Origin: Heterodontus francisci
Lineage: Eukaryota
NCBI RefSeq assembly: GCF_036365525.1
Contig: NC_090388.1
Location: forward strand, 61,591,726-61,655,725
Direction of reading: 5' to 3'
DNA: 64,000 bases
The number at the start of each line of letters is the position of its first letter. Positions within the stretch are counted from its first letter, which is position 1. Made by a program: the position numbers and the translations under genes. The notes under the pieces were generated by a model. The model was not told where the DNA came from. It saw nothing but the letters and a program-made list of their open reading frames with translations, and did no database searches. Positions 2,340 through 55,665 of the stretch are shown piece by piece.

Positions 2340-2454
2340 TACTACATTACAACAGTGAAAGCATTTCAAAAAAGTACTTCATTGGCTGTCAAGCACTTTG
2401 GCACATCCTGAAGTCATGAAAGGCACTATCTAAATGCAAGTCTTTCTTTCTTTT
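2340..2454 (+). mobile_element. Deu-domain SINE (SacSINE1/AmnSINE-like) 3' tail fragment
   Basis: TACATTACAACAGTG...TTCATTGGCTGT...TGAAAGGCACTATCTAAATGCAAGTCTTTCTTT aligns by eye with the tails at 32230-32310 and 50135-50235. Confidence 0.75.
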
Positions 2455-2729
2455 ACTATATCAAGCAGAAGGATAAAGAATCCAGTCCTTCTCAGTTTCC
2501 CTGCCCTAATACACACTGACTGAGGCTATATGCTGAACCCACAGTGACTAGCTGTTTCAAAGCTTCACATGCACACTCAAACCACTGCAAGGCATGCTTT
2601 ATTATTGTCACTCAGACACAGCTACTGTTGCCACTTGATCTTTTGGAAAGGTAACCCCACATAGTACGTTCACCACACAACTAACTTGCATGATGCAGGC
2701 TGACCTTTGCAACACTTCAACATGACTTC

Positions 2730-2942
2730 TTTGTATGCAGCAGAAAGTTTCTCAGAACTGGGTAATTGTATTCAGTTGGTGGGTATTAATTGGGGACTTA
2801 CCTGTGCTCATTTATATAGGAATAGGTTGAAAGAGACTTTTTTGTTTGGAGCTGTATGGTAAGCAATGTGTGTCTCTGTAAATAAAAGTTAATAACTGAC
2901 TAAAGACAGGCTATCCATCACCAGCCTATCCAAGTTTTGACA
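2730..2942 (+). mobile_element. Possible degenerate short solo LTR
   Basis: TATATA, then AATAAA (2881), then a ...TTGACA end in LTR-like order; no TSD found. Confidence 0.3.
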
Positions 2943-3867
2943 AAGTCCATTGTCTTACCACAGAGAAAATGCAGTGAGACTTGATCATTTCTTCCTCTTC
3001 TAACTCCTTGCCACCTGAATTATGATTTCCAGGAATTGGGGAATAAAATGTCCAACATGTCATAAAAATACATTTATGATACGAAGTGGCATAATTGTGT
3101 TCACAGCAGGATCCACAAACCTAAGATGTATCACCGTACAAATTAGAGCAGTATCACACCATCATCTGTTGACATGCCCTTAAACACAATGCAATGCTTA
3201 GTGTCGTATTTGACAGACATTGTAAAAAACGATTTGGGACATAACCATATCCTTGGGCTGCATAAAGTAAATGGAATTTACAAGTAAAAGCAAATGTGCT
3301 ATTCTATCACACTGAAATGCCTAAAGCTCCAAAAGAAAAAAAATCCTGCCTTGGTTTGGATGCAAGACTGCCATTTATATTGCCCTTGCAGGTGTACACA
3401 ACATTACCAGAAAAACAGCAAATAAAAGCAGCACCTTGGTTTTCTCCCTGATCCATGTTACTGGCTTCCCTCTGTATCTAAGGCTGTAGTTATACTGCAA
3501 CTACCAGTTCAAGAGGCCTGTTCAGCAGACTGGCCTTAGTATGACTGTTGCTGAAGTGGAGCAAGAGTACAGCTCTGCACATGTTTGCTTCCACACATGT
3601 GCAGAGTTCCATTCCCAGTAACTAATAGTTAATGTTATTGAGCATGTAACATTTTTTTTTAAATCCATTCGATGTTTTAAAAGTTTCATTGGTCCAGCTG
3701 GGCAACCTTAAAATGGGCCTTTGCACAGAGCTGAAGGTACACCAATGTCAGTGTGAACTTGAAGCAATGTGAGATGGCCTATTTGATGGGGAGCCATACC
3801 AATTGGCTTCATCTGTGTCAAGTAAATCAAGGTTCATAAGCTTGGACAACCATTACCTCCCTCAAAC

Positions 3868-4029: not shown

Positions 4030-5687
4030 GAATCACAGAATTACAAAATTGTTACAGTGCAGAAGGAGGCCATTTGGCCCATCGTGTCCGCACTGGCTCT
4101 CTGAGGAGCAATTCCCTCAGTTCCATTCCGCCACCTTCTCCCCGAAACCCTGCACATTCTTTCTTTCTTTTCATATAACTCTCTAATTCCCATTTGAATG
4201 CATCAATTGAACCTGCCTCCACCACTTTCTCAGCAAGCACATTCCAGACCTTAACCACTCGCTTCGTGAAAAAGCTTTTCCTCATGTCACTTTTACTTCT
4301 CTTACCAAATACTTTAAATCTGTGGCCTCCTTGTTCTCGATCCTTTCACGAGTGGGAACAGTTTCTCTCTATCTACTCTGTCCAGACAGCTCATGATTTT
4401 GAATACTTCTATCAAATCACCTCTCAGCCTTCTGTTCTCCAATGAAAACAGCCCTAACTTCTCCAATCTATCTTCATAACTGAAATTTCTCGTCCCTGGA
4501 ACCATTCTCTTGAATCTTTTCTGTACCCTCTCCAATGCCCTCACGTCTTTCCTCGAGTGCGGCACCCAGATCAGGACTCAATATTACAGCTGAGGCTGAA
4601 CTAGTGTCTTATACAAGTTCAACATAGCTTCCTTGCTTTTGTACTCTATGCCCCTATTAATAAAGCCCAGGATACTGTATGCTTTATTAACCACTTTCTC
4701 AACCTGTCCTGCCACCTTCAATGACTTATGCTCATGTACATCTAGGTCCCACTGCTCCTGCACCCCCTTTAGAATTGTACCCTTTATTCTATATTGTCAC
4801 TCCATGTTCTTCCTACCAAAATGAATCACTTCACATTTCTCTGCATTGAACTGCATCTGCCACCTGTCCGCCCATTCCACCAACTTGTCTATGTCCTTTT
4901 GAGGCTCAACACTATCCTCCTCACAGTTCACAATGCTTCCAAGTTTCGTATCATCTGCAAACTTTGAAATTGTGCCCTGTACACCAAGGTGTAGGTCACT
5001 AATATATATCAGGAAGAGCAACGGTCCCAACACTGATCCCTGGGGAACTCCATTACAAACTTTCCTCCAGCTCAAAAAAATCCATTAACCACCACTCCTT
5101 GTTTCCTGTCAATTCCGTATCCACGTTGCTACCATGCCTTTTATTCCATGAGCTACAAGTTTGCTCACAAGTGGCACTGTATCAAATGCCTTTTGACAGT
5201 CCATTTGTTACCTCCTCAAAAAAACTCCAGCAAGTTAGTTAAACATGATTTTCCATTAAGAAATCCATGCTGGCTTTCCTTACGTAACTGGCATTTGTCC
5301 ATGTGACTATAAATTTCGTCCCGAAATAATTTTTCTAGAAGTTTCCCCACCACTGAAGTTAAACTGACTGGCCTGAAGTTGCTGGGCTTATCTTTACACT
5401 CTTTTTTTGAACAAGGGTGTAATGTTTGCAATTTTCCAGTCCTCTGGCACCACCCCTGAGTCTAAGGAAGACTGAAAAATTATGGCCAGTGCCTCTGCGA
5501 TTTCCACCCTCACTCTCCTCAGTATCCTTGGATGCAGCTCATCTAGTCCTAGTGTGTTATCCACTTTAAGTACAGACAGCCTATCTAATACTTCCACTTT
5601 ATTAATTTTAAACCCGTCTAGTGTCTGACGTACCTCCTCTTTCAACATTGCCTGGGTTGCATCTTCTTCCTTGGTAACACAAATGCA
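4030..5687 (-). mobile_element. CR1 LINE, 5'-truncated, frameshifted ORF2 (RT)
   Basis: ORF pieces NFRPVSLTSVVGK, QHGFLNGKSCLTNLLEFF, GVPQGSVLGPLLF, KFADDTK, LERVQKRF..LEKLGLFSLE; CR1 3' stem-loop tail at 4055-4100. Confidence 0.95.
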
Positions 5688-8774: not shown

Positions 8775-10048
8775 CTGGAACACCTACTCCCCTTGTCCCA
8801 CCATTGGTGGCTGCGCCTTCAGCTGTCCAGGCCCTAATCTCTGGAATTGCCTCGTTAAACCTCTCTGCCTCTCCATCTGTATCTCTGCCTTTGAGACACA
8901 CCAGGACATCGCTGCAGGAGTTCCTCAGGGTAGTGACCTAGGCCCAACCATCTGCTCCATCAATGACCATCCCTCCAACATAAGGTCAGAAGTGGGAATG
9001 TTCAGTGATGTTTGCAGTGTTCAATACCATTTGAGACTCCTCAGATACAGAAACAGTTTGTGCCAGCATGCAGCAAGATCTGGATAATAGTTAGGCTTGG
9101 GCTGATAAGTGGCAAATAACATTCACACTTCCCAAGTGCCAGGCAATGACAATCTCCAAAGAGAATCTAACCATCTCTCCTTGATGTTCAACAACATTGC
9201 CATTGCTAAATCCCTCACCATCAACATCCTGAGGGTCACCATTGATCAGAAACTTCACTAGACCAGCCACATTAATACTGTGGCTTCATGAGCACGTTCA
9301 GAGGCTGGAAATTCTGCAGTGAGTAACTCATCTCCTGATTACCCAAAGCCTGTCCACCACGCACAAGGCACAAGTCAGGAGTATGATGGCATAATCTCCA
9401 CTTGCCTGGATAAGTGCAAATTCAACAACACTCAAGAAGCTTGACACTATTCAGGACAAAGCAGCCCGCTTGATTGGCACCCCATTCACAACTTTGAACA
9501 CTCACTCAGTCCACCACGAACGCACAGTGGGAGCAGAATGTACCATCTACAAGATGCATTGCAGCAACACACCAAAGCTTCTTCAACAGCACCTTCCAAA
9601 CCCGTGAACTCTACCACCTAGAAGAACAAGGGCAGCAGATGCATGGAAACACCACCACCTGCAAGTACCCCTCCAAGCCACACATCATCCTGACTTGGAA
9701 CTATATCGCCGTTCCTTCACTGTCACTGGGTCAAAAACCTGGAATTCCCTTCTGAATAGCACTGTGGGTGTACTAAACCACATAGACTGCAGCAGTTCAA
9801 GGCAGTGGCTCACCACAACCTTCTCAAGGGCAATTAGTGATGGGCAACAAGTGCTGGCCATGTCAGAGACACTCCATCCATGAAAGAATATTTTTAAAAA
9901 CTACTACTTTGCCCAAGCATTTAATCACCCCTCCCAATATCTGCTTCTTTGGCTTGGTGTCAATTTTAGTCTGATTATGCTCCTGTGAAGTGTCTTGGGA
10001 TGTTTTCCTACATTAAAAGTGATGTTTAAATGCAAGTTGTTGTTGTTG
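8775..10048 (+). mobile_element. L2 LINE 3' end, split by a LINE-B insertion (8899-9893)
   Basis: IGGCAFSCPGPNLWN motif before the insertion; after it the tail GTGAAGTGTCTTGGGATG...TAAATGCAAG(TTG)n. Confidence 0.75.
8899..9893 (+). mobile_element. LINE-B (CR1/Jockey-group) 3' fragment, decayed
   Basis: DIAAGVPQGSDLGP..RSEVGMFSD; tail GGGCAATTAG...CATCCATGAA collinear with 20410-21412. Confidence 0.9.
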
Positions 10049-15564: not shown

Positions 15565-17865
15565 ATGTGTATAAAAGTGAACGGAATGAGAAAAATCAAG
15601 TAGTGGTTTGGAGATGTCTGACATGGCTTTCAAAAAAGCTGTAGGTTGCAGAAGATAGCCAAGAATGAGGTTAGAAATCCAGGCCGCAAGATTGGGTTCC
15701 ATAACACCTGTAGTTTTGGCTCCACAGGTGCCATTTTTGTACCAACATGGTGTCCATGCTGCTTGCGCTCACTTCCATTGTGGCCCATACCAAGCATCAC
15801 CTTGGTGAGGGTGTTAGCATGGGCATTAGAAGTGTGTGCTGGAAAAATGCAAAGTAGATAGATCGTTACATCAGTCAGTGTGTAATGCTGATTTGATGCC
15901 AGCACTGCCATTTTTGATCTTGCCGCTATAGGTAAAGTCCTCTCTTAATCTCGCACAGCTGAACATACGAATTAGGGGCAGGAGTAGGCCACTCGGCCCC
16001 TCGAGCCTGCTCCGCCATTCAATAAGTTTATGGCTGAACTGATTACTCCACATCACCACCTACCCCCGATAACTTTCACCCCCTTGCTTATCAAGAATCT
16101 ATCTACCTCTGCCTTAAAAATATTCAAAGACTCTGCTTCCACCACCTTCTAAGGAAGAGAGTTCCAAAGACTCACGACCCTCTGAGAAAAAACATTTCTC
16201 CTCATCTGTCTTAAACGGGCAACCCCTTATTTTTAAACAGTGACCCCTGGTTCTAGATTCTCCCACAAGGGGAAACATCCATTCAACATCCACCCTATCA
16301 AGACCCCTCAGGATCTTATATGTTTCAATCAAGTCGCCTCTTACTCTTCTAAATTCCAGCGGATACAAGCCTAGCCTGTCCAATCTTTCCTCGTAAGATA
16401 GCCCACCCATTCCAGGTATTAGTCTAGTAAACCTAATCTGAACGGCTTCCAATGCATTTACGTCTTTCCTTAAATAAGGAGATCAATACTGTACACAGCA
16501 CTCCAGATGTGGTCTCACCAATGCCCTTTGTAGCTGAAGCATAACCTCCCTACTTTTGTATTCAATTACCCTCACAATAAACGATAACATTCTATTAGCT
16601 TTCCTAATTACGTGCTGTACCTGCATACTAACCTTTTGCGATTCATGCACTAGGACACCCAGATCCCTCTGCAACTCAGAGCTCTGCAATCTCTCACCAT
16701 TTAGATAATATGCTTCTTTGTTATTCTTCCTGCCAAAATGGACAACTTTGCATTTTCCCACATCATATTCCATCTGCCAGGTCTTTGCCCATTCACTTAA
16801 CCTATCTATATTGCTTTGTAGTCTCCTTATGTCCTCTTCACAACCTACTTTCCTACCTATCTTTGTGTCATCAGCAAATTTAGCAACCATGCCTTTGGTC
16901 CCTTTATCTAAGTCATTTATATAAATTGTAAAAAGTTGAGGCCCAGCACAGATCCCTGTGGCACACCACTCGTTACGTTTTGCCAACTGGAAAATGACCC
17001 ATTTATGCCTATTCTCTGTTTCCTGTCAGCGAGCCAATCATCTATCCATTTCTAGTATGTTACACCCTACACCGTGAGCTTTTATTTTTTGCAATAACCT
17101 TTGATGTGGCATCTTATCAAATGCCTTCTGGGAATCTAAGTACAATACATCCACAGGTTCCCCTTCATCCACAGCACATGTAACTCCCTCAAAGAATTCC
17201 AATAAATTGGTTAAGCATGATTTCCCTTTCATAAAACCATGTTGACTCTGCCTGATTACCTTCAATTTTTCTAAGTGCCTGCTATAACGTCTTTAATAAT
17301 AGCTTCTAACATTTTCCCTAAGACAGATGCTAAGCTAACTGGCCTGTTTTCTGTTTCTCCCTTTTTGGATAAAGGAGCTACATTTACTATTTTCCAGTCT
17401 AGTGGAACCTTCCCCGAATCTAGGGAATTTTGGAAAATTAAAACTAATGCATCAACTATCTCACTAGCCACTTCTTTTAGGACCCTAGGAGGAAGTCCAT
17501 CAGGACCCGGGGTCTTGTCAGCCCGCAGCTCCAACAATTTGTTCAGTACCACTTCCCTGGTGATTGTAATTTTCTTGAGTTCCTCCCTCTCTTCCACTTC
17601 CTAACTTAAAGCTAATTCTGGGATGTTACTTGTATCCTTTATAGTGAAGACCGATGCAAAATATCTGTTCAATTCATCTGTCATCTCCTTATTATTCATT
17701 ATTAATTCCTCAGACTCACTTTCTATAGGACCAAGGCTCACTTTATTAACTTTTCTTTTTAAAATATCCATAGAAACTCTTACTATCTGTCTTTATATTT
17801 CTAGCTAGCTTTCTCTCGTACCCTAATTTTATCTTCCTTAGCAATCTTTTGGTCAATCTTTACTG

Positions 17866-18551: not shown

Positions 18552-19746
18552 GCTTCTACATCCTGGTTTCCTGAACTTAGATCATCCCTCTCTATTGTGC
18601 GAATACCATCATTAATTAACAGAGCCACCCCTCCACCTTTTCCTAGCTTCCTGTCCTTCCTAAATGCCATGTACCCTTCAATATTCAGGTCCCAATCCAT
18701 GTCATCCTGTGGTCATGTCTCTGTAATGGCTATTGTAATCGGATTGTACATATTTATTTCTATTTGTGCTCTCAGTTCATCTGTTTTGCTTTAAATGCTA
18801 CGTGCATTCTGATACAGAGCCTTTAGTTTTGTCCTTTAATTATTTTTGTAACCTCTAGCCTTATCTGTTGATTTTCTCTTAGATGTGCATGCTCTGTCCC
18901 TTCCTGTCACAGTCTGATTATCATTTCCCATATTAATACCTTTCTCTCTTGCCTTGTCTCTTCTCCTTGATTTACCATATCTTCCCAAATTTGATCCCTT
19001 GTCCATGCATTCAGCAGCAGGAAGGACCCTTTCCACCAGTGCTATTTAAAGTGATAATCAACAATATGCATGATAGCTGCTGATCACTTTCTACTGACTC
19101 TGTTTGAATTTGTGGCAGTGCTGGGTGTTTTGAGGAGTTGGTTACAGGTGGTCAAGTCTACAGTGAGTGGTGCTGCACGTGGAGAATGCTTTGCTTGTGA
19201 CTGAAAAAGCTCTGGGTTGTAACAGCAGTCCCTCTTATGTTGCAGCATGTGAAGGAGATGGTACAGAAGCAGCAAATAAGAGGACAAGCTGCTCGAATAG
19301 GGAGAAGGAGAGGGGTAGAGGGCTCTCAGCAGGAGGCCTTATCTGCCCAGGGTCTTTCAAGAGCACTTCTCTTACCTCCACCTAAGCCAGGAGCAGTGTG
19401 TGCATTGTCTGCAATTCACAAAGGAGGTGAACACAAAACTTTGCCACCTTTTGGAACCAGACCTACAGCCTCAGCACAGGGCAAGGATAGTGCTGCCAGT
19501 CACTGTGAAAGTGACCATGGCCCTGAATTTCTTTGCGTCAGAATCCTTCCAGGCTGGAATAGCCAACATATCTAACACTTCCCAGTTCACTATCCATTGC
19601 TGCATCAGAGAGGTGACGGAGGTGTTGTCTGCCAGGAGAGGGGAGTCTATTGTGTTCTCTCTGAACAGAGAGAAGCAGGCGACGTGTGATTTGGTTTTGC
19701 CAGGATAGTGGGCTTCCCCACACTGCAGGGTGCCATTGACTGCACA

Positions 19747-21412
19747 GTTGATGATCCATCTCGGCCCCCTCCTGAAGTCCCCAGCATTACAGATGCCAGA
19801 CTTCAGCCAATTTGATTCACTCCGCGTGATATCAAAAAACGACTGAAGGCACTGGACACTGCAAAGGCTATGGGTCCTGACAATATTCCAGCAATAATAC
19901 TGAAGACCTATGCTCCACACCTTACCGCGCCCCTAGCCAAGCTGATCCAGTACAGCTACAACACTGGCATCTACCCAGCAATGTGGAAAATTGCCGAGGT
20001 ATGTCCTGTACACAAAAAGCAGGACAAGTCCAACCCGGCCAATTACCGCCCCATCAGTCTACTCTTAATCATCAGCAAAGTGATGGAAGGTGTCATCAAC
20101 AGTGCCATCAAGCGGCACTTGCTTAGCAATAACCTGCTCAGTGATGCTCAGTTTGGGTTCCGACAAGGCCAATCAGCTCCTGACCTCATTACAACCTTGG
20201 TTCAAACATGGACAAAAGAGCTGAACTCAAGAGGTGAGGTGAAAGTGACTGCCCTTGACATCAAGGCAGCGTTTGACCGAGTATGGCATCAAGGAGCCCG
20301 AGCAAAACTGGAGTCAATGGGAATCAGGCGGAAAACTCTCTGCTGGTTGGAGTCATACCTAGCACAAAGAAAGATGGCTGTGGTTGTTGGAGGTCAATCA
20401 TCTGAGCTCCAGGACATCACTGCAGTAGTTCCTTGGGGTAGTGTCCTAGGCCTAACCATCTTCAGCTGCTTCATCAATGACCTTCCTTCAATCATAAGGT
20501 CAGAAGTGGGGATGTTCGCTGATGATTGCACAATGTTCAGCACCATCGCAACTCCTCAATTACTGAAGCAGTCCGTGTAGAAATGCAGCAAGACCTGGAC
20601 AATATCCAGGCTTGGGCTGATAAGTGGCAAGTAACATTTGCGCCACACAAGTGCCAGGCAATGACCATATCCAATAAGAGAGAATCTAACCATCTCCCCT
20701 TGACATTCAATGGCATTACCATCGCTGAATCCCCCACTATCAACATCCTAGGGGTGACCATTGACCAGAAACTGAACTGGAGTAGCCATGTAAATACCGT
20801 GGCTACAAGAGCAGGTCAGAGGCGAGGACTCCTGCGGCGAGTAACTCACCTCCTAACTCCCCAAAGCCTGTCCACCATCTACAAGGCACAGATCAGGAGT
20901 GTGATGGAATACTCTCCACTTACCTGGATGGGTGCAGCTCCAACAACACTCAAGAAGCTCGACACCATCCAGGACAAAGCAGCCCACTTGATTGTCACCC
21001 CATCCACAAACATTCACTCCCTCCACCATCGACGTACAGTGGCAGCAGTGTGTACCAACTACAAGATGCACTGCAGCAACGCACCAAGGCTCCTTAGACA
21101 GCACCTTCCAAACCCGTGACCTCTACCAACTAGAAGGACAAGAGCAGCAGATGCACGGGAACATCACCACCTGCAAGTTCCCGTCCAAGTCACACACCAT
21201 CCTGACTTGGAACTATATCGCCGTTCCTTCACTGTCGCTGGGTCAAAATCCTGGAACTCCCTTCCTAACAGCACTGTGGGTGTACCTACCCCACATGGAC
21301 TGCAGCGATTCAAGAAGACAGCTCACCACCACCTTCTCAAGGGCAATTAGGGATGGGCTATAAATGCTGGCCTAGCCAGCGACGCCCACATCCCATGAAT
21401 GAATTTTAAAAA
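19747..21412 (+). mobile_element. LINE-B (CR1/Jockey-group) RT region, 5'-truncated, young
   Basis: ORFs 19870-20580 and 20526-21119: GPDNIP, NYRPISLL, QFGFR, LDIKAAFDRVWH, MFADD, IRSVMEY; tail CCACATCCCATGAATGAAT. Confidence 0.95.
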
Positions 21413-21805: not shown

Positions 21806-22553
21806 GGTGAAGTGCTGAAAATACTGAGAAGTGTAGAGTAAGTGAGGGACCTTGGAGTGAATGTCCACAGATTCCTGAAGGGAGCAGGACAGGTCGATAA
21901 GGTGGTTAAGAAGGCATATGGAATCCTTTCCTTTATTAGCCAAGTTATAGAATATAAGAGCAGAGAGGTTATGCTGGAAATGTATGAATCATTGGTTAAG
22001 CCACAACTTGAGTACTGTATGCAGTTCTGGTCACCTCATTACAGAAAGGATGTAATTGCACTCGAGAGGGTACAGAAGAGATTTACGAGGATGTTGCCAG
22101 GACTGGAAAAATGTAGCTGTGAGGAAAGATTGGATAGGCTGGGGTTGTTTTCCTTGGAACAGAGAAGGCTGAGGGGAGATCTAATTGAAATGTACTAAAT
22201 CTTGAGGGGCCTGGATAGACTGGAGGTGAAGGGTCTATTTACCTTCGAAGAGAGGTCAGTGACTAGGGGGCATAGATTTAAAGTGATTGGTAGAAAAATT
22301 AGAGGGGAGATGAGGAAAGACCTTTTCACCCAAGGGTGGTGAGGTGGTGGGGGTCTGAAACTCACTGCCTGAAAGGGTAGTTGAGGCAGGAACCCTCAAA
22401 AGGAGTCTGGATATGCACCTCAAGTGCCATAATCTGCAGGGCTATGAAGCAAATACTGGAAAGTGAGATTACAATGGGTGGATCGTTTTTTTGGCCAGCA
22501 CAGACATGATGGGCCAAGAGGCCTCTTTCTGTGCCTTAAACCTTCTATGATTC
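21806..22553 (+). mobile_element. CR1 LINE 3' fragment inserted in the Harbinger 1 transposase
   Basis: RDLGV..LVKPQLEYCMQFWSPHYRKD..LERVQKRFTRM; tail ..TTCTATGATT. Confidence 0.95.
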
Positions 22554-23564: not shown

Positions 23565-24164
23565 TTTTCAAGGTTCTTCCTGCTCATTCAGTCCTCTTTC
23601 CCCACTTGCAGCCCCTGCTGCATTCAGAATGCACTTCCCCTTTAAGACTTTAAGAGTTACAATCTGGATTTAAGTAGGGCAGACTACCTTTAAGTGGTGC
23701 TAGCCTTGCATAAACTTGGGTCTCCTGCTGAGATGTGCAGCCACTATTATTTCAATTAGCAGGCAGTAAAAAGTTTGCATGCTGCCTGTGTTACTTTGAA
23801 TGGGGTGTGGGATAATTGCACATTGCTATCCCCGTGCCTGTCCACGGAGCCTATCAAATTTTTAGCCCCCATAATTTTGAAGTCCTGGGAACGAATATTT
23901 TGAGGAAGGAAAGGTACAATGTGTGTTAATCTTAATATAGAAAACAGTTAGATTTGCTAAATGCAGTGCTGGCCCCAGGTGAAGTTTTGGCTACTTTGGC
24001 AGCTGACAACTGTAATCAACACTGTAATGCCCAGGCAGGCATAAATCCAATGTGTCATTATGCACTAGAACCGTTCAACATTATACAATCAGGCAATTGT
24101 ACACCAATCTGCAAAGGAATGGATGACATTGGAGGATGAATTAATTGTTAATTGATCCCACTCT

Positions 24165-25315
24165 AGCAACCTACAAAGGCTTCTTTGACAGCACTTTCCA
24201 AAGAACAAGAACAAGGGCAGCAGACTCATGGGAACATCACCATCTGCAAGTTCCCCTGGAAGTCACTCACCATCCTGACTTGGAAACAAATCGCCATTCC
24301 TTCATCATAGCTGGGTTAAAATCCTGGAACTCTCTCCTGAACAGCACCGTGGGGGCTGCATTTTAAGAGTCCGACGCCGAAGTAGGTGGCGGACATAAAA
24401 AAATGTGCATCACGTCACAGAGCCACCGCGATTTCAAACGTGGCGGCTCATTTGCATGGCCGCTGTGCCCGCCCCCCACAATCACGTTGAGGGGCCGGAC
24501 GAGCTGCCACAGGCAACAGCATCCAGCACCAATGCACAGGCACCATTTTTAAAGGGCTTACAGCCCTTAATGGAGATTTTAAAATTAAAGGGCCAGGTCA
24601 GTTCAATGACCAAAAAAAAGAATTAAATTATTATTACATTCATTTCCAGACGCCCCCCACCTCCCCCCCCCCCCACCCCATGGCATTTCAAAACATTCCT
24701 GCCCTTTTCCTCCCGGAATTTGTTTATTAAGAATTTGACCTTTCCCCCCCCCACCAAAGTTTCACACCTTTACCCTCTACCCCTTCCCATTAAACCTGCC
24801 CTACCAATCCACAGCAATGTCACCCCATTCCCCCCTTCCGCACAGAAAAAAAATCCTCCTCCCCCCACCCCACCCCACAGGTGTCGCACCACGTTTCCCT
24901 GAACGGGGATTCGAAGGAGCGGCATTGTCGGCCGCCCGAATGAAGATCGGTATGGCAATTCAGGAGGCAATGGGGCCCTCAGTAAATCAGGCATGTAAAT
25001 TAGTTTACATACTCAAATGGGGGTCCCATAGCCGAGCAGCGGGGCAGCCGCCACGAGGCCTCGCCGTTGAGATTGGCACCAGGCCTGTCGCTGTTGGGGT
25101 CGATGGCAGGCCTCCACCACACCGATCTTCATTGCCCCCCACCTCCCGCCATCGTTTTCAATGGCGGAGGGGCTTTAAAATCCAGCCCTGGATGTAGCTA
25201 TACCACACAGACTGCAATGGTTCAAGAAGGAGCTCACCTTCTCAAGGACAATTAGGGATGGGCAATAAATGCTGGACGTGCCAGTGACGCTCACATCCCT
25301 AGAAGGAATAGAAGA
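24165..25315 (+). mobile_element. LINE-B 3' end fragment split by a MITE
   Basis: CAGCACCG|TGG...TGG|ATGTAGCTATACCACAC rejoins to match the sequence at 21269-21295. Confidence 0.85.
24353..25188. mobile_element. Harbinger-type MITE
   Basis: TIRs GGGCTGCATTTTAA / TTAAAATCCAGCCC; 3-bp TSD TGG (24350-24352, 25189-25191); related to 31041-31816. Confidence 0.85.
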
Positions 25316-34069: not shown

Positions 34070-36107
34070 TGTAACATACAGGTGAGAATGTGGCTGGTCT
34101 GATTAGTAAGTTTGCGGACGACACAAAGGTTGGTGGAGTTGCAGATAGTGATGAGGATTGTCAGAGGATACAGCAGGATATAGATCGGTTGGAGACTTGG
34201 GCGGAGAAATGGCAGATGGAGTTTAATTCGGACAAATGTGAGGTAATGCATTTTGGAAGGTCTAATGCAGGTGGGAAGTATACAGTAAATGGCAGAACCC
34301 TTAGGAGTATTGACAGGCAGAGAGATCTGGGCGTACAGGTCCACAGGTCATTGAAAGTGGCAACGCAGGTGGATAAGGTAGTCAAGAAGGCATACGGCAT
34401 GCTTGCCTTCATCGGTCGGGGCATAGAATATAAAAATAGGCAAGTCATGCTGCAGCTGTACAGAACTTTAGTTAGGCCACACTTAGAATATTGCGTGCAA
34501 TTCTGGTCGCCACACTACCAGAAGGACGTGGAGGCTTTGGAGAGGGTACAGAAGAAGTTTACTAGGATGTTGCCTGGTCTGGAGGGCATTAGCTATGAGG
34601 AGAGGTTGGAAAAACTTGGATTGTTTTCACTGGAACGACAGAGGTGGAGGGGCGACATGATAGAGGTTTACAAAGTTATAAGCGGCATGGACAGAGTGGA
34701 TAGTCAGAAGCTTTTTCCCAGGGTGGAAGAGTCAGTTACTAGGGGACATAGGTTTAAGGTGAGAGGGGCAAAGTTTAGAGGGGATGTGTGAGGCAAGTTC
34801 TTTACACAGAGGGTGGTGAGTACCTGGAACTTGCTGCCGGGGGAGGTGGTGGAAGCAGGTACGATAGCGGCGTTTAAGAGGCATCTTGATAAATACATGA
34901 ATAGGATGGGAATAGAGGGATACGGTCCCTGGAAATACAGAAGGTTTTAGTTTAGAAAGGCATCAAGATCGGCGCAGGCTTGGAGGGCCGAATGGCCTGT
35001 TCCTGTGCTGTACTGTTCTTTGTTCTTTGTTCTTTGAGAAGAGGTGTGGGTGACTTCCACTTTTCTCCTTTCAGCTGACCATAATTAGTGTTCTAAAAAT
35101 AATGCTACAGTCCCTGATAAGGGTGAAATAAATTGACAAACGACAAGTTTTCTCTTAGGTGAAAGAAGGAAGATAAATATTTTTACACAATGACCGAAAA
35201 ATATTCAAGACTTCACCCACTCACGCATTCACACACATACACACACAAGAAAAGATAGCGAGCAGAGAGGTAGCATGCAATAAGAGTCCAATTGTTATAA
35301 AAGAGCTCGTTTTAAGAAAACCTTTAGAAGATTTTCAGGAGGAAATCTTTCAGCAGTGATGGCCTGAATGATTGTTGTCTTGAAAAGGATGACGTGCCAC
35401 AAGCTCCTTGTGGTTAAGCCTCAATCCGAAGTTGATAGTGGAAATCTTGGTTCACTTTTGCAGTTGGGGAGTTTCAAAGTCACCTTGCAATTTCTCTGCT
35501 GCAGTGGTTAAAATATGTTATCAGCAGGGCTCCTGCTTAGCCAGAACTGTCTCACAGCTGTTCTGGCTAGAAAAGACCTTCTCTGGCTATTCTGCCTCTG
35601 TCTCTCCAAGAGATACCTTTTAAGGTGGGATCTTGTCAGGTTGGGGTGTCGGTCAGGTGACCAAGGGCTGTCTCCCTGGGGTGATTCATACAATGTTCCA
35701 GGAAATGGGAACCCCCATTGTAACATGATGGTGTCTGAATGTGTTCCATTTTGCTAAATAGGTGTTTATTTCACACCTGTTATTTTGGCTTTGGCCTTGG
35801 AGTCAGTCTGTCTGCAAAAGTCTTTGCTAGCTCCATTCCTGCAGATAGGAGTTGTTAGCATGGAATAGGCTGTTTTCCATTTCAATGTGTTATCCCCAAA
35901 GCTAATTCGGACATAGATAATGGGTATCGTCTTCAACGGATTAACATGTTTATTGACAGTATAACAGTGGTCACCTGGCCTCTAGTTCATCTTGCCTGTA
36001 GCACAAATGTGTCCTTTTTTTGTAGTTCAGTTCAACAGTTGACGTTTATTTCATAATTCCTCCAGTTTGTTGCATATTTCATCACTGTATCCTCCATGAG
36101 CGTGACA
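34070..36107 (-). mobile_element. Solo LTR, family C (end related to family B), interrupted by CR1
   Basis: TGTAACA...CGTGACA termini; flanks TATG and TACA; TGTAACATACAGGTGAGAA|GAGG resembles the reverse complement of 63720-63744. Confidence 0.75.
34089..35034 (+). mobile_element. CR1 LINE 3' part, young
   Basis: 233-aa frame KFADDTK..LVRPHLEYCVQFWSPHY..TRGH; (TGTTCTT)n tail; TSD TGAGAA at 34083-34088 and 35035-35040. Confidence 0.95.
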
Positions 36108-41786: not shown

Positions 41787-44037
41787 AATGAGAACCAGGC
41801 CAAATACAATAAGTTAAGAGGGGAAGTGAAGAGGAAAATACGACTGGCAAAGAGTGAATATGAGAATAGAATGGCAGTTAATATAAAAGAGAACCCAAAT
41901 ATCTTCCACTGACATGTAAATAGTAAGCAGTTGTTAAGAGGCTGGGTGGGGCCTATTAGGGACAAAGAGGGTGATGTATGCTTAGAGGTGCAGGGCAAAG
42001 CTAAAATACATAATGAGTACTTTGTATTGGTGTTTACTAAGGAAGAGGATGCTGACAAAATATCGATAGAAGCAGAGATGGTAGAGATAATGGATGGGGT
42101 GAAAATTGATAAGCAGGATGTACTGGATAGGCTGGTTTTGCTTAGAATGGATAAGTCGCCTGGTCCAGATGGCTTGCATCCCAGATTGCTAAAGGAGGTG
42201 GGCATAGAGATAGTGGAAGGGCTTGCCATAATCTTCCAACCTTCCCCAGAAACAGGGAAAGTGCCAAAGGATTGGAGAGTGGTAAATGTGACATCCTTAT
42301 TCAAGAAAGGGTGTAAGAACAGTCCTAGTAACTACAGGCCGGTCAGTTTTACATCTGTGATGGGTAAGATTTCAGAACCAATAATGAGAGAAAAAAATCA
42401 ACAGTGACCCGGGTTCAGTTCTGGGTACTACCTATGCGAAGTTTGCAAGTTCTCCCTGTGACCGCGTGGGTTTCTGCCGGGTGCTCCGGTTTCCTTCCAC
42501 AGCCAAAGACTTGCAGGTTGATAGGTAAATTGGCCATGGCAAATTGCCCCTAGTGTAGATAGGTGGTAGGAGAATTGAGGGAAGGTGGGGATGTGGTAGG
42601 GAATATGGGATTAATGTAGGATTAGTATAAATGGGTGGTTGTTGGTCGGCACAGACTCGGTGGGCCGAAGGGCCTGTTTCAGTGCTGTATCTCTAAATAA
42701 AAATAAAAAGAATAAAGACTTGGAGACGTTTGAGTTAATTAGGGAGAGCAGCACAGGTTTGTAAGAGCCAGATCATACTTGACTAATCAAGTTGATTTTT
42801 TGATGAAATAACAGAGAAGGTTGATGAAGGGAAAGCAATGGATGTTGTTTATATGGATTTTGAGAAAGCCTTTGACAAAGTATCACATAAAAGGCTGGTT
42901 AACACAGTTGAGGCTCAAGGAATAGGACAGTCAGCTTGGATAAAAAATTGGCTTATGGACAGAAAACAGCGAGTTGTGGTAAATGGTTGATTTTCAGACT
43001 GAAGGATGGTAGACAGTGGTGTTCCCCAAGGTTCAGTGCTACCCAAGGTTCAGTGCTAGGACCACTGTTTTTTTGATATACATAAATGACTTGGATGTTG
43101 GAATACAAAATAAAATTTCAAAAATAGCTGATGATACCAAATTCGGAGGTGTGAGACAGTGGGGATGATACCAATCAATGCAACAGAACATAGATAGGCC
43201 AGCAGAAAGGGCAGATAAGTGGCAGATGGAATATAATATCGACAAATGTGAAATGATGCATTTTGGCAAAAGGCATAGCGAGAGGCAATATAGACTTAAT
43301 GGCACAGTTTTAAGGAGTGCACAGGGACAGAGGGACCCGGGGGTGCATATGCATCGATCTTTGAAGGTGGCTGTACATATTGAGAGAGTGGTTAGCAAAG
43401 CATATGGGATCTTGGGCTTCAAAAATAGAGGTATTGAGAACAAAAGCAGGGAGGTTATGGTGAAGCTTTATAAAGATCTGGTTAAGCCACAACTGGAGTA
43501 TTGCATCCAGTTCTGGTTACCGCACTTTAAGAAGGATGTGAGGAGTCTTGCAAGGGTGCAGAGGAGATTTCCCAGAATGGTTCCAGGGAATGAGGGATTT
43601 TAGCTAAAACATTAGGTTGGAGAGCTGGGATTGTTCTCCTTGGTGCAAAGGAGAGTGAGGGGAGCTTTAATAAAGGTGTACAAGATTATGACAGGGTTGG
43701 ATAGGGCAGACAAAGAAAAGCTGCTCCCATTAATTGAGGACTAGGGGACACAGATTTAAGATTTTGGACATGAGGTGCAGGAGGGATGTGAGGAAGAACT
43801 TTTTTTATGCAGCGAGTGGTAATGACCTGGAACTCGCTGTCTACGAGGGTGGTGAAAGCGGAGACGATGAATGATTTCAAAAGGAAATTGGATGGGCACT
43901 TGAGGGAAATAAACTTACAGGGCTATGGGGATAGAGTGGGGGAATGAGACTGATTGGATTATTCTACAGAGAGCTGACATGGATTCGATAGGCCGAATAG
44001 CCTCCTTCTGTGCCGTAATGACTCCCTGACTCTATGA
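41787..44037 (+). mobile_element. CR1 LINE, 5'-truncated, decayed, with nested HE1 SINE
   Basis: KSPGPDGLHPRLLKE, NYRPVSFTS, GVPQGSVLG, IADDTK, LVKPQLEYCIQFW; tail ..GACTCTATGA. Confidence 0.95.
42404..42715 (+). mobile_element. HE1-like V-SINE, 5'-truncated at the B box
   Basis: Nearly identical to the reverse complement of 5850-6135; A-rich tail. Confidence 0.9.
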
Positions 44038-49824: not shown

Positions 49825-50238
49825 GTTAGCTGTGGGCCCAAGTCCCAAAGTGCAGATACTGGAGCACGAAATCCAGGCCAACACTCTAGTGCATTACTGA
49901 GGGAGTGTTCCACCATTAGAGATGCTATCTTTCAGATGAGATATTAAACCAAGTCCTTGTCTGCCCTCTCAGATGGACATAAATGATCCCACAGCACTAT
50001 TTAAAGAGGAAGGGAGTTCTCCCTGATGTCCTGGACAACAATTATTGCACAAGCAGCATCACCAAAATAGATCAGGTCATTATCACATGGTTGTTTGTGG
50101 GAGATTGCTGTGTGCAATTGGCTGCCGCATTTCCTGCATTATAACAGTAACTACACTTCAAAGATAGTTCATTGGCTGTAACACACTTTGGGACATCCTG
50201 ATATCATGAAAGGCGCTACATAAATATAAGGTTTTTTT
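49825..50238 (+). mobile_element. Deu-domain SINE (SacSINE1/AmnSINE-like)
   Basis: B box remnant, Deu core TACTGAGGGAGTG..CTTTCAGATGAGATATTAAACC..GATCCCACAGCACTATTT, L2-type tail TGAAAGGCGCTACATAAAT. Confidence 0.85.
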
Positions 50239-51302
50239 AACTTTTGGCAAAAATCTCCAGAAGTAGTTGATACAGTAGCTCCTGTTTTTACCACCTTTTT
50301 GCCAGGGTCCAGTGTAACCAGTGAAACATCTTAGTCCATAGGTCCAAGGCTCACTGTTTTGTAGCTGTACATGCAGCATCACCACTCACTGTACTGAACA
50401 ACACAAAGAAAGACTGTGATTGACAGCAGAATAATGAACTGCAGGAGTTTAACAACTGCCAGATCCAGGATGCACAGTAGCCTAGATATAGGATAAAACA
50501 CCTCCTCCTCCATCCCATCAGCTGGTCTCCATTTCTAGAAGTGATAGATTAGACAGAGGAAACAGTGAACCATGTGAATACTCAAGGGATAGCAGCAGCT
50601 GAAAAGGCCCAGCTGGGGAGTTAATAATTAATGGTTGAGAGCGACTTGCCTGGTCGGAGTTCATTTGAATCTCATTTAAAATAACTAAATACTTCATCAA
50701 ATGAGCAGGAAGTCTGGCTTTAATTGACAATGTATCACAAGTCAGCCACGTGGGGAATGGAAGCCCTCAGCAGATGCAAGAGCCCTTTTTTCCCCCTTTG
50801 CACGCATGGGTTCTACTCAGTGTGAAAGAATGCATCCAGCATAAGCTCCTTAGCACTAAAATGTTTTAATATTCATACAACGTAACTTAGAAATCTAGCA
50901 GCAGCTGACCAAGAGTTTCAAATAAAGTTTGCATAGCACCAAAGAAAGCCACAATTTAAACAAAGTCTTGAATTTTGGTCTATAGAAAGCAGTTACACTG
51001 GAGCAGCTTGTCATAATTTAAACTGCAGCTATAAGCAAACTCTTATAAAACATAAAATTGTGGTAGAAATTGTAGGGATTTTCCCTCTTGCAGGGCTATT
51101 GTGATGTGTATATCTATTAATACTCTATTATGTTGTCAAATCGGATTGTTGACTCTTTGAACAATTTCACAATCACCGTGCCAAACTGAAATGAAAGCCC
51201 TTGGTCTACAGGGCCTGTATATTGCTTTTACCTATCCAATATCTAGGTCACTTTGTGTCATGTCCAGGGATTTAACAGAATACCCTTGTACTCGACTTAA
51301 AA

Positions 51303-54300
51303 ATTCATTCTGGGGATATGTGCGCACCTGAAAAGCTGACACTCATTGCCCATCCCTAGTTGCCCTGAGAAAGTGGGGGTGGGATGCCTTTTTGAACTCC
51401 TGCAGTTCATGTGATGAAGCTACTCCCACAATGATGTTAGATAGGGAGTTCCAGGAATTTGACCCAGCGATGAAGAAGGAACAGCAATATATGTCCAATT
51501 TGGGGTGGTGTGAGACTTGGAGGGAAACTTGGAGGTGGTGGTAATCCAATGCCCTTGTCCATCTAGGTTGTATAGGTCGAAAGTTTGGGAGGCGCTGTCG
51601 AATCAGCATTGGCAAGTTGCCACAGTGCATTTTGTAGATGGTACACACTGCAGCCATGGTATGCCAGTAGTGGAGGAAGTAGATGTTTAAGGTGGGCTGC
51701 CGATCAAGTAGACTATTTTGTCCTGGATGATGTCGAGCTTCTTGAGTGTTATTGCAGTTACATTCATTCATGCAAGTGGAGAGTATTCTATCATACTCCT
51801 GACTTGTGAGTTGTAGAAAGAAGATGGACAGGCTTTGGGAGTCAGGAGGTGAGATACTTTCTGCAAAATATCTAGCCTCTGACCTGCTGTAGTAGCCACA
51901 GTAATTTTTTTATTCATTCATGGGATGTGGGCATCGCTGTCTAGGCCAGCATTTATTGTCCATCCCTAATTGCCCTTGAGAAGGTGGTGGTGAGCTGCCT
52001 TCTTGAATCGCTGCAGTCCATGGGAGGTAGGTGCACCCATAGTGCTGTTAGGAAGGGAGTTCCAGGATTTTGACCCAGCGGCAGTGAAGGAACGGCAATA
52101 TAGTTCCAAGTCAAGATGGTGTGTGACTTGGAGGAGAACTTGCAGGTGGTGGTGTTCCCATGCATTTGTTGCCCTTGTCCTTCTAGTTGGTAGAGGTCGC
52201 GGGTTTGGAAGGTGCTGTCTAGGGAGCCTTAGTGCATTGCTGCTGTGCATCTTGTAGATGGTACACACTGCTGCCATTGTGCGTCAGTGGTGGAGGGAGT
52301 GAATGTTTGTGGATGGGGTGCCAATCAAGCGGGTTGCTTTGTCCTGGATGGTGTCAAGCTTCTTGAGTGTTGTCGGAGCTGCACCCATCCAGGCAAGTGG
52401 AGAGTATTCCATCACACTCCTGACTTGTGCCTTGTAGATGGTGGACAGGCTCTGGGGAGTCAGCAGGTGAGTTACTCGCCGTAGGATTCCTAGCCTCTGA
52501 GCTGCTGTTGTAGCCACGATATTTATATAGCAACTCCAATTCAGTTTCTGGTCAATGGTAGCCCCTAGGATGTTGATAATGGGGGATTCATCGATGGTAA
52601 TGCCATTGAATGTCAAGGGGAGATGGTTAGATTCTCTCTTATTGGAGATGGTCATTGGCTGGCACTTGTGTGGCGCGAATGTTACTTGCCACTCATCAGC
52701 CCAAGCCTGAATATTGTCCAGGTCCTGCCGCATTTCTACACGGACTGCTTCAGTATCTGAGGAGTCGCGAACGGTACTGAACATTGTGCAATCATCAGCA
52801 AATATCCCCACTTCTGACCTTATGATTGAAGGAAGGTCATTGATGAAGCAGCTGAAGATGATTGGGCCTAGGACACTACCCTGAGGAACTACTGCAGTGA
52901 TGTCCTGGAGCTGAGATGATTGACCTCCAACAACCACAACCATCGTCCTTTGCGCGAGGTATGACTCCAACCAGCAGAGAGTTTTCCCCCTGATTCCCAT
53001 TGACTTCAGTTTTGCTAGGGCTCCTTGATGCCATACTCGGTCAATTGCTGCCTTGATGTCAAGGATGACTCTGACCTTGATGACTCTGACCTCACCTCTT
53101 GAGTTCAGCTCTTTTGTCCATGTTTGAACCAAGGCTGTAATGAGGTTAGGAACTGAGTGTTACTGAGCAGGTTATTGCTAAGCAAGTGCCGCATGATGGC
53201 ACTGTTGATGACACCTTCCATCACTTTACTGATAATTGAGAGTAGGCAGATGGGGGTGGTAATTGGCCGGGTTGGACTTGTCCTGCTTTTTGTATACAGG
53301 ACATACATAGGCAATTTTCCACATTACAGGGTAGATGCCAGTGCTGTAGCTGTACTGAAACAGCTTGGCTAGGGGCACAGCAAGTTCTGGAACACAGGTC
53401 TTCAGTACTATTACCGGAATATTGTCAGGGCCCATAGCCTTTGCAGTATCCAATGCCTTCAGTCATTTCTTGATATCACACGGAGTGAATTGAATTGGCT
53501 GAAGTCTGGCATCTGTGATGCTGGGGACTTCAGGAGGAGGCCGAGATGGATCATCAACTTGGCACTTCTGGCTGAAGATTGTTGCAAATGCTTCAGCCTT
53601 ATCTTTCGCGCTGATGTGCTGGGCTCCCCCATCATTGAGGATGGGGATATATGTGGAGCCACCCTCAGTGCTTCCTCCAAGTGGTGTTCAACATGGAGCA
53701 GTACTGACTCATTAGCTGAGGGAGGGTGGTAGATGGTAATCAGCAGGAGGTTTCCTTGCCCATGTTTGACCTGATGCCATGAGACTTCATGGGGTCTGGA
53801 GTCGATGTTGAGGACTCCCAGGGCAACTCCCTCCCTACTGTATACCATTGTGCCGCCACCTCTGCTGGGTCTGTCCTGCCGGTGTGACAGGACATACCCG
53901 GGGATGGTGATGGCAGTGTCTGGGACATTGTCAGGTATGATTCCTTGAGTATGACTATATCAGGCTGTTGCTTGACTGGGACAGTTCTCATAACTTTGGC
54001 ACAAGCCACCAGATGTTAGTAAGGAGGACTTTGCAGGGTCGACAGGGCTGGGTTTGCCGTTGTCGTTTCCGGTACCTAGATCGATGCCGTCCTGTTTCAT
54101 TCTTTTTTATTGACTTTGTAGCGGTTAGATACAACTGAGTGGCTTGCTAGGCCATTTGAGAGGGCATTTAAGAGTCAACCACATAGCTGTGAGTCTGGTG
54201 TCACATGTAGGCTAGACCAGGTAAGGACAGCAGATTTCCTTCTCTAAAGGACATTAGTGAACCAAATGGGTTTTTACAACAATCGACAATGATTTCATGG

Positions 54301-54870
54301 CCATCATTAAACTAATTTTTAATTTCAGATTTATTAAATCCAAATTCCACCTCTGCTGTGGTGGGATTTGAACCCATACCCCCAGAGCAATACCCTGGGT
54401 CTCTAGGTTACTAGTCCAGTGACAATATCACTATGCCACCACCTGGTGTCTGGTCCTGCTGGTGTCTGGTCAATGGTGACCCCCGAGGATGTTGATGGTG
54501 GGGGATTCAACAATGGTAATGCCGTTGAATATCATGGGGAAGATGGTTGATTCTCTCTTGTTGGAGATGGTCATTGCCTGGCACTTGGGAAGCACGAATA
54601 GTACTTGCACTTATCAGCCCAAGCCTGGGTGCTGTCCAACTCTTGCTGCTTGTGCGCATGGGCTGCTTCTGAGGAATTATGAATGGAGCTCAACACTGTG
54701 CAACCATCAGCAAACATTCCCATCTCTGGTCCTATGATGGAGGGAAGGAGGTCATTGATGAAGCAGCTGCAGTGTGTTTGCCCCAAGACACCATCCTGAG
54801 GAACTCCTGCAGTGATTGGCTGGGACTGAGATGATTGGCTTCCAACAACAACAACCATCTCCCTTTGGCT
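51303..54870 (-). mobile_element. Old LINE-B copy (51303-51904 and 54445-54870) split by a younger copy of the same family
   Basis: ..GTAGCCACAGTA| and |..CTGGTCAATGGTGACCCCC are nearly adjacent in the collinear young copy (52510-52565). Confidence 0.85.
51905..54443 (-). mobile_element. LINE-B with 5' end: tRNA-like head, ~430-bp UTR, APE endonuclease (internally deleted) and RT; no ORF1
   Basis: A box TGGCATAGTGA (54438-54428), B box GGTTCAAATCC (54374-54364); EN motifs QPDIVIL.ESYL, IPGYVLSHRQDR..RGGG, LLITIYHPPS; RT ORF 52284-53132; 3' tail at 51905-51975. Confidence 0.9.
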
Positions 54871-55529
54871 AACTGGTTATAACCCATGCCCTGATCTGAT
54901 CTTCCTAGACTTCAGAAGGCTGTAGAATAAACACTTCATTAAAATATAGTATCGGCATTAGCTGCCAAACCAATTTACTTTCAGAATATTTCCTTGTTTG
55001 GTTAGTAATTATTGATAACTACTACATCTCATCTTGTAATTGCAAACTTGCACCTCAGAACCGAGAATCCCTAATATAAAAGGAGATTAAAGAGCAGCTA
55101 ATATGGTTGCATTTCGCCTTCACAGTACAGTGGCTAATGTTCATCAAAAATCATAGCATTTTTAGAATATGAAGCAGGTTGAAGGTTACAAGGATCAAAT
55201 AACAAAAATCAGGATTGTTCCTGGTGAGTATCCTGAAGAAAAAGAAGGAACAACTGCTTACATCATTTCTCCAACGTTTCTCTGGTCTTCTGACAGAGTT
55301 ACAGTGGGTGATCTGAAGCAGCTCCCAGGCATTCTCCAATCTGAAAAATTCAGCTCGCACACCCAAATATAACATCCACTTCCATACATGTTTGAATTCA
55401 ATCATTTGCTCTCTCTTTAAATATTGAATTCAATCTGCCCAGAATGTTCCTGCCATTGTTGACCTTTTTATACAGGTAATTGATCACAAGGTGTATTCCC
55501 AGCAATCTATCATCAGCTGGTAGTTACAT

Positions 55530-55665
55530 GCAGCACACTTTCCAGCAGGAATCACTGGATACTGATCCAGAGCCAGAACAGTGACCTTGCCTGAGGCCAG
55601 TGGTAGTACTATTTCCTTGGACGAAATCAGCTAACTCAGTAAAGACCAAGAATCAAACCTTTTAT
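55530..55665 (-). mobile_element. Old SINE-like repeat (family X), 5' part
   Basis: Minus strand GGTTTGATTCT (B box-like) then GGTCTTTACTGAGTTAGCTGA, as at 7211 and 48375. Confidence 0.45.

Follow-up and report, generated by a model that had tools for sequence, protein, structure and literature searches.

The stretch analysed here (hereafter the window) comprises 64,000 nt of Heterodontus francisci contig NC_090388.1 (positions 61,591,726 to 61,655,725, forward strand), with coordinates counted from its first letter. On its minus strand, an initial annotation had noticed a long interspersed element (LINE) that opens with a tRNA-like RNA polymerase III (Pol III) promoter and lacks the first open reading frame (ORF1). 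Comparison with a consensus built for the family revealed an entire but decayed copy of this element, which we assign by sequence to the elasmobranch form of Zenon, a lineage of the CR1 group, and which sits inside an older copy of its own lineage. The copy, its parts and its flanks are as follows.

51905..54444, minus strand: young-subfamily tRNA-headed LINE assigned to Zenon, entire copy, decayed, with one internal deletion (BLAST against the family consensus).
54352..54444, minus strand: head of tRNA origin that includes a hairpin resembling a long variable arm; it is no working tRNA (alignment to the host tRNA-Leu(TAG)).
54428..54438, minus strand: A box TGGCATAGTGA (final base decayed; consensus TGGCGTAGTGG).
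54364..54374, minus strand: B box GGTTCAAATCC (CpG-decayed; consensus GGTTCGAATCC).
54133..54277, minus strand: conserved core of the 5' untranslated region (UTR), ~145 nt, ending at the breakpoint of the deletion found in a partner short interspersed element (SINE; alignment of both LINE subfamilies and three SINE types).
54144..54155, minus strand: ATG-GCC-TAG-CAA, the sole in-frame AUG shortly before the endonuclease, shut by a stop two codons later.
51966..54146, minus strand: open reading frame (ORF) remnant (basic N-terminus, AP endonuclease, reverse transcriptase (RT), C-terminal region), disrupted by frameshifts, stops and the deletion.
53658..53663, minus strand: 6-nt microhomology that marks the ~715-nt internal deletion found in the window copy alone (BLAST).
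52284..53159, minus strand: RT fragment of 291 aa (Pfam RVT_1, E=7.9e-22).
51905..51977, minus strand: 3' tail with the end of the ORF, a stem-loop and an A tail; the portion common to the SINE.
54445..54871, minus strand: left part of the interrupted older same-lineage copy (82% to consensus nt 2244-2657).
51303..51904, minus strand: right part of the interrupted older same-lineage copy (78% to consensus nt 2677-3289).

The window copy starts at 54444, matching consensus nt 5, and BLAST aligns 54444-53658 with nt 5-816 (91%) and 53663-51912 with nt 1526-3289 (93%). The initial annotation was right about a minus-strand unit but placed its start at 54443, which we correct to 54444, and the internal deletion is added here. 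The flanking halves are collinear with the consensus, the left ending at nt 2657 (BLAST) and the right restarting at nt 2677, and together they make up one older member of the lineage, with 78-82% identity to the young consensus, just as the unit had been described to interrupt one older element. Both promoter boxes were located on the minus strand at the reported spacing of 53 nt. The first strand of the endonuclease (VLLTN) lies at 54029, ~415 nt from the 5' end of the copy, and QPDIVIL at 53967, ~477 nt from it. Because the endonuclease begins ~415-430 nt from the 5' end, there is no space for ORF1 in this copy, as had been claimed. The window copy (junction 54444/54445) and two other loci, L049 and L331, are inserted within or beside copies of their own lineage, which abundance alone may explain.

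Further copies show that the head belongs to the family. The host genome (6.0 Gb) was searched with a UTR/ORF query, which gave 5,467 candidates, and with an ORF-only query, which gave 3,913; for each, 40 were scored and 30 fetched. The sampled young copies are top-scoring and non-random. The query copy (L051) and a tandem duplicate (L055) were dropped from these 60 loci, and two that stayed in the sample, L054 and L061, come from a single tandem array. The 5' end falls at or before consensus nt 12 in 20 of 30 copies from the UTR/ORF query and in 14 of 28 from the ORF-only query (34/58 together), and the remaining 24 are 5'-truncated at scattered positions between nt 60 and 779 with mutually unlike flanks (40 nt compared). 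No alternative 5' module was seen among the 58 young copies; in particular, full-length copies with another 5' UTR and an ORF1, the case named beforehand as fatal to the idea, were sought there and did not appear. The young consensus of 3,289 nt (majority of 20 extended copies and the window copy) consists of the head, ~300 nt of UTR in total, one 975-codon frame and a short tail. Head, UTR and frame recur in an older subfamily of 40 copies, which are ~79-92% like the consensus of that subfamily; this consensus is 93.5% identical to the young one. Finally, a 23-nt motif across the UTR/ORF junction of the young subfamily has 6,143 exact genome matches, while its reversed control has 0, so the joining of head and LINE is not due to chance.

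A one-off template-switch chimera, or a SINE lying beside a truncated LINE, would fit a single copy and nothing further; the counts above, the older subfamily and the published consensuses described below refute it, and we give it a vanishingly small probability. The tRNA head is confirmed as a fixed family feature, and the suggestion of a SINE-headed autonomous LINE holds for a whole family. By eye, no target-site duplication was evident in 17 complete copies. Common variants among L001-L080 are reshuffled and not nested, which suggests many masters and frequent recombination. Internal deletions are also present in many copies. The tandem array (L054, L055 and L061; G000:C4, ~201.67-201.68 Mb) consists of full-length copies with the same 5' flanks at ~4.1 kb spacing. 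Eight of the 24 truncated copies (L002, L005, L015, L016, L029, L060, L065 and L079) stop within nt 191-210, at the start of the conserved core; this cluster may mark a second start, a processing site or a point where RT stops.

The assignment to Zenon comes from comparison with the accessible parts of a published survey (PMC13343379, GBE 2026), to which all statements on that source are confined. Zenon is reported there from sharks, rays, coelacanth and hagfish, with a poly-A tail. All seven elasmobranch Zenon consensuses, from 5 species including one stingray (CarCar, HypSab, RhiTyp and ScyCan Zenon-1; SquAca Zenon-1 to -3), open with the same head and core when their first 400 nt are compared by eye; the ORF start matches too by eye, a 15-nt core motif is present 6 times in the supplement, and the published lengths are 2,886-3,314 nt with a poly-A tail. 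In the first 400 nt of two hagfish consensuses and one from coelacanth we found no head, and runs of four or more T (T4+) are present there, although the coelacanth row is in lower case and may be flank. The window family likewise has a single ORF with endonuclease and RT and no ORF1, and 33 of 42 LINE-type tails have A5+ within 30 nt (20 extra loci entered this tail tally only). It lacks the canonical CR1 arrangement of ORF1 ahead of ORF2, as the endonuclease lies ~430 nt from a fixed 5' end. On this comparison we identify the window element as an elasmobranch Zenon LINE of the CR1 group. The initial annotation had treated the loss of ORF1 as unusual, which does not stand: every Zenon and Rex1 sequence in the survey lacks it (PMC13343379).

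The main text of that survey makes no mention, in the parts available, of tRNA, polymerase III, promoter or start codon, nor its supplement of tRNA. A literature search at title and abstract level, covering sources other than subscription journals and Repbase reports, returned no tRNA-headed or Pol III-transcribed autonomous LINE. The family and its ORF1 loss were thus already known, whereas the head, the T-run avoidance, the absent AUG and the daughter SINE apparently have gone unremarked in print. In an RT tree of 124 sequences, which included no labelled Zenon reference, the element belongs to a group of 40 members (support 0.89) that is well separated from host CR1, with no supported sister lineage. 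Its protein relatives are single proteins of 26-39% identity, many on 3-4 kb contigs. No B-box motif was found upstream of the ORF match in 80 metagenome loci of relatives, many of which lack their 5' end, and ARAGORN made 3 weak calls on these sequences. One RefSeq aldo-keto reductase model from Heptranchias perlo (P0038) contains ~220 residues of the LINE ORF mid-protein at 85% identity; this hybrid is probably an annotation artefact, or else an exonisation.

The young consensus carries canonical A and B boxes, and its head aligns to the host tRNA-Leu(TAG) gene with a score of 68 against a shuffled maximum of 44. Thr and Lys tRNAs score 43-49 against the SINE head (three isotypes compared in all). 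With a tRNA-related head bearing A and B boxes, the LINE shows the hallmark of tRNA-derived SINEs (SINE2). The 5' end common to LINE and SINE lies 10 nt upstream of the A box, and the sharply defined start of the element corresponds to roughly position 1 of a tRNA. We rejected the head as a functional tRNA gene: it has no cloverleaf fold, ARAGORN returned 0 tRNA matches, Rfam tRNA-Sec reached 15.3 bits with a cut-off of 47, and the top Rfam match, SNORA5, was on the opposite strand and under its cut-off. A tRNA-modification footprint was sought at the T-loop A, with mismatches in 0 of 33. Either capture of a SINE or fusion with a tRNA may have first brought the head to Zenon.

Pfam domains Exo_endo_phos and RVT_1 score above cut-off on intact stretches of other copies, yet the first in-frame Met of the 975-codon consensus frame is codon 285, beyond the endonuclease. 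Both LINE subfamilies and the SINE have the blocked AUG, ATG-GCC-TAG-CAA, where the UTR core ends. Its TAG is kept in 36 of 49 young copies and replaced by sense variants in 13. We do not take these variants to reflect selection or RNA modification, as they are scattered over haplotypes and the T within CTAG is hypermutable, mutating ~4x as often as other T in the family alignment (mean 0.105 vs 0.028; up to 0.26 at position 1155). Synonymous changes make up 40 of 64 shared variants vs 368 of 1,351 singletons, synonymous variation is seen at codons 9, 13 and 15, numbering from the blocked AUG, and the basic N-terminal stretch recurs in several protein relatives; coding therefore begins a few codons at most from the end of the core. 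After TTG, the published dogfish consensuses have a stop and the whale shark consensus is one base short (by eye, PMC13343379), so simple read-through or a UUG start is disfavoured in those two species, and AUG read-through or UUG is doubtful as the universal start. An upstream mini-ORF (MKPDG) was rejected as a tiny ORF1 since the old subfamily has ATA in place of its ATG. The UTR core is nearly invariant across both LINE subfamilies and three SINE types, and inspection of the published consensuses of sharks and rays by eye shows it there too; it is a candidate translation-entry or ribonucleoprotein element. A non-AUG, cap-independent entry would fit an uncapped RNA.

The same features could suit a promoterless element read within host Pol II transcripts, in which RNase P would cut the head to set the 5' end, taking the role of the self-cleaving ribozyme of R2. 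The sharp 5' end near tRNA position 1 is what such cutting would leave, an absent AUG is expected of uncapped RNA, and ribozyme-set 5' ends are noted for R2 and others in the accessible text of PMC5786205. However, the head neither folds as a cloverleaf nor scores as a tRNA, and RNase P processing does not predict the avoidance of T runs over 3 kb described below; we regard it as improbable.

The element also has a short partner. A SINE family of ~390 nt consists of LINE nt 1-321 (93%) joined to nt 3222-3289 (91%), and its junction has 4,931 exact matches in the genome. Among the first 100 listed, three recurring junctions account for 59, 32 and 5, and 4 have longer tails. Consensuses were made for type A (20 copies), type B (15) and type C (5). 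In the diagnostics of head and tail, type B goes with the old LINE, whereas types A and C go with the young LINE (94.5% and 96.1% in the head vs 87.0%). On the simplest reading of these diagnostics, deletion gave rise to SINEs at least twice; alternatively, a SINE lineage and the LINE may have exchanged ends repeatedly. The short and non-coding character of SINE2 elements is found in the ~390-nt derivative only, as the LINE has 3,289 nt and 975 codons under constraint. The derivative also joins the 5' and 3' ends of its partner LINE, as a short internally deleted element (SIDE) of the Persaeus type does, but it differs from that type, which has no tRNA homology or Pol III promoter, in retaining the full head. 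The earlier suggestion that the LINE could spawn its own SINE by internal deletion is supported by this head-plus-tail SINE, with LINE to SINE as the probable direction. T4+ occurs within 22 nt in 10 of 42 LINE-type tails and 12 of 65 SINE tails, mostly as a T5A5-like palindrome replacing the A tail (for instance in L036, L037, L082, L193, L352 and L369). These tails may have arisen by fold-back conversion once the copies had inserted, or some masters may have a Pol III terminator built in.

Vertebrate Pol III terminates where the coding strand has a run of at least four T. The initial annotation had supposed that T runs in the UTR of the window copy would stop Pol III, which is mistaken: its 2,540 nt hold eight TTT and no run of four or more. 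The young consensus likewise has no T4+ in 3,289 nt beside 14 A4+, 13 C4+ and 8 G4+, the old-subfamily consensus has none, and of 10 single copies, 8 have zero and 2 have one. Each of the 4 TTT in the ORF is a Phe codon, with none spanning a codon junction; T3+ in the ORF stands at 4 against 12.9 expected in a codon shuffle (P=0.0003). AA at codon junctions is normal (63 vs 67.6 expected), so the deficit is one-stranded. Because CpG loss might produce a T deficit, the codon shuffle was repeated with the CpG and TpA junction classes (next-base G and A) fixed, and gave 6 junction TT against 15.9 expected (P=0.0002, ratio 0.38) and 4 T3+ against 10.2 (0 of 4,000 shuffles). A CR1 of the host genome served as control: it contains 9 TTTT in 2,370 nt, with a junction ratio of 0.90. 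For metagenome relatives, the codon tests took the 53 of 80 with a frame of at least 500 codons, dropping the 27 without one; their junction ratios run from 0.70 upwards (median 0.96), three of them significantly low. After insertion, TTTT is gained at 0.44 copies per site vs 0.26-0.48 for other runs. As dead copies gain TTTT freely, there is no mutational block to it and the deficit is set in the active masters.

Rather than a conventional LINE, we suggest that elasmobranch Zenon is Pol III-made, cap-independently translated, autonomous and SINE-spawning, a reading to which we assign a probability of roughly 0.58 on sequence evidence. Under this model TFIIIC would bind the A and B boxes, and Pol III would transcribe the entire terminator-free unit of 3.3 kb and run on into the flank. 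Translation of the uncapped RNA would begin at a non-AUG site close to where the UTR core ends, and the protein would bind the 3' stem-loop and copy the RNA by target-primed reverse transcription. Every full-length copy would carry its own promoter along, and internal deletion of the LINE would yield the partner SINE. The history that this implies, in which Zenon of a shark/ray ancestor gained a tRNA-Leu-like promoter, purged terminators over 3 kb, made a ~965-residue protein through the ~145-nt entry and repeatedly gave birth to SINEs by deletion, seems to us evenly balanced between true and false.

Alternatively, an internal Pol II promoter in the UTR may make the LINE RNA, the head being a captured SINE 5' end retained for RNA structure, TFIIIC binding or translation, and U-run avoidance arising from splicing, polyadenylation, decay or innate sensing. 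This agrees with the accessible parts of PMC10886601 and PMC5786205, where LINEs are assigned to Pol II and SINEs to Pol III, with a UTR core that is better conserved than the head, and with a published stingray consensus whose head is shortened and B box worn (by eye). Yet it sits poorly with the canonical boxes of the young consensus and the 5' end shared by LINE and SINE, with the lack of comparable T-run avoidance in the CR1 control (presumed Pol II) and the 53 relatives, and with the absence of any AUG that a scanning ribosome could use. We consider the Pol II explanation rather unlikely, if worth keeping in view.

Transcription of Zenon by Pol III has several points weighing against it, the first of which also favours Pol II. 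The absence of TTTT alone has P=0.009 in a base shuffle, 0.085 in a codon shuffle, 0.15 in a dinucleotide shuffle and 0.33 under the strictest control; by itself it is weak because it is non-significant under the stricter shuffles. The signal at the level of TT and TTT could also arise from other RNA-level selection, its control within the host genome was one family, the CR1 of 34108-34600, and the two subfamilies, at 93.5% alike, are not independent replicates. The three SINE junctions are nested in 2-nt steps and could descend from each other, and type C has n=5. Among the 40 nearest sequences of the RT tree, L111 alone has DNA, and it is without its 5' end. The variants place the start codon only to within a few codons of the core end. 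Contigs of 4 of 24 sequencing runs cover all 30 bins of the first 913 nt, coverage from which neither strand, start nor expression is readable. Finally, SINEs are 100-700 bp long, which is attributed to weak Pol III processivity (PMC10886601, accessible part).

If the Pol III model is true, it matters for the textbook division in which coding LINEs are Pol II and short non-coding SINEs Pol III transcripts: a coding Pol III unit of 3.3 kb, in thousands of shark and ray copies, would break it. The element would be a living LINE-SINE link and a natural long Pol III mRNA translated without a cap. Deletion of a headed LINE, in place of three-part fusion, could then give rise to SINEs in one step and to SINE 'bodies'.

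Known systems share parts of this arrangement. R2 also has a single ORF, no Pol II promoter of its own, uncapped RNA and a non-AUG start, but it is a ribozyme-cut Pol I co-transcript, site-specific and with another type of endonuclease. The descriptions that follow are taken from the accessible parts of the papers cited. Persaeus, a SIDE of Lepidoptera (PMC6740152), is Zenon-linked, non-autonomous and made of Zenon 5' and 3' ends joined by internal deletion, but has neither tRNA homology nor a Pol III promoter; the shark deletion product is a textbook SINE because its autonomous parent LINE itself bears a tRNA head. The ZenoSINEs of Lepidoptera (PMC6685494) are short, non-autonomous and Zenon-linked, but their head is of unknown origin and they share the tail alone. 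Bov-tA, WALLSI2 and the RTE- and Vingi-derived bodies (PMC5786205) resemble the shark SINE in using a LINE 5' UTR as body and a LINE 3' end as tail. In the bipartite-LINE SINEs of that paper, however, the head is joined to a non-coding bipartite LINE, whereas in shark Zenon it is on a coding element; ORF-less bipartite elements are reported for RTE, Ingi, Vingi and R2 only (PMC5786205). The TRIMp3 elements Cassandra, Helenus and Ajax (PMC10886601) are non-SINE retrotransposons with a small-RNA-derived Pol III promoter, but are non-autonomous, non-coding long terminal repeat elements of 311-1,263 bp. HE1/HER1, SacSINE1 and CmiSINE/L2-2_CM (PMC3747384, PMC5499810) are tRNA-derived SINEs of cartilaginous fish with a LINE-shared tail, and differ as V, Deu and CORE SINEs sharing the 3' tail alone, a distinction drawn from their descriptions only.

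The window holds further repeats. Four more 5'-truncated pieces of the same lineage lie on the plus strand at 19746-21404 (95%), 8901-9889 (84%), 24159-24353 (76%) and 25189-25309 (81%), with identities to the young consensus. Canonical CR1-type LINE pieces occur at 34108-34865, 21844-22343, 4052-5044, 43042-44018 and 16286-16607, and the CR1 family of 34108-34600 is young, with 97-98% identity among its top matches. Two old SINE-like repeats were also observed, at ~49870-50240 and 55500-55660; part of the first, which may be of the Deu-domain SacSINE1 type, recurs at 2342-2448.

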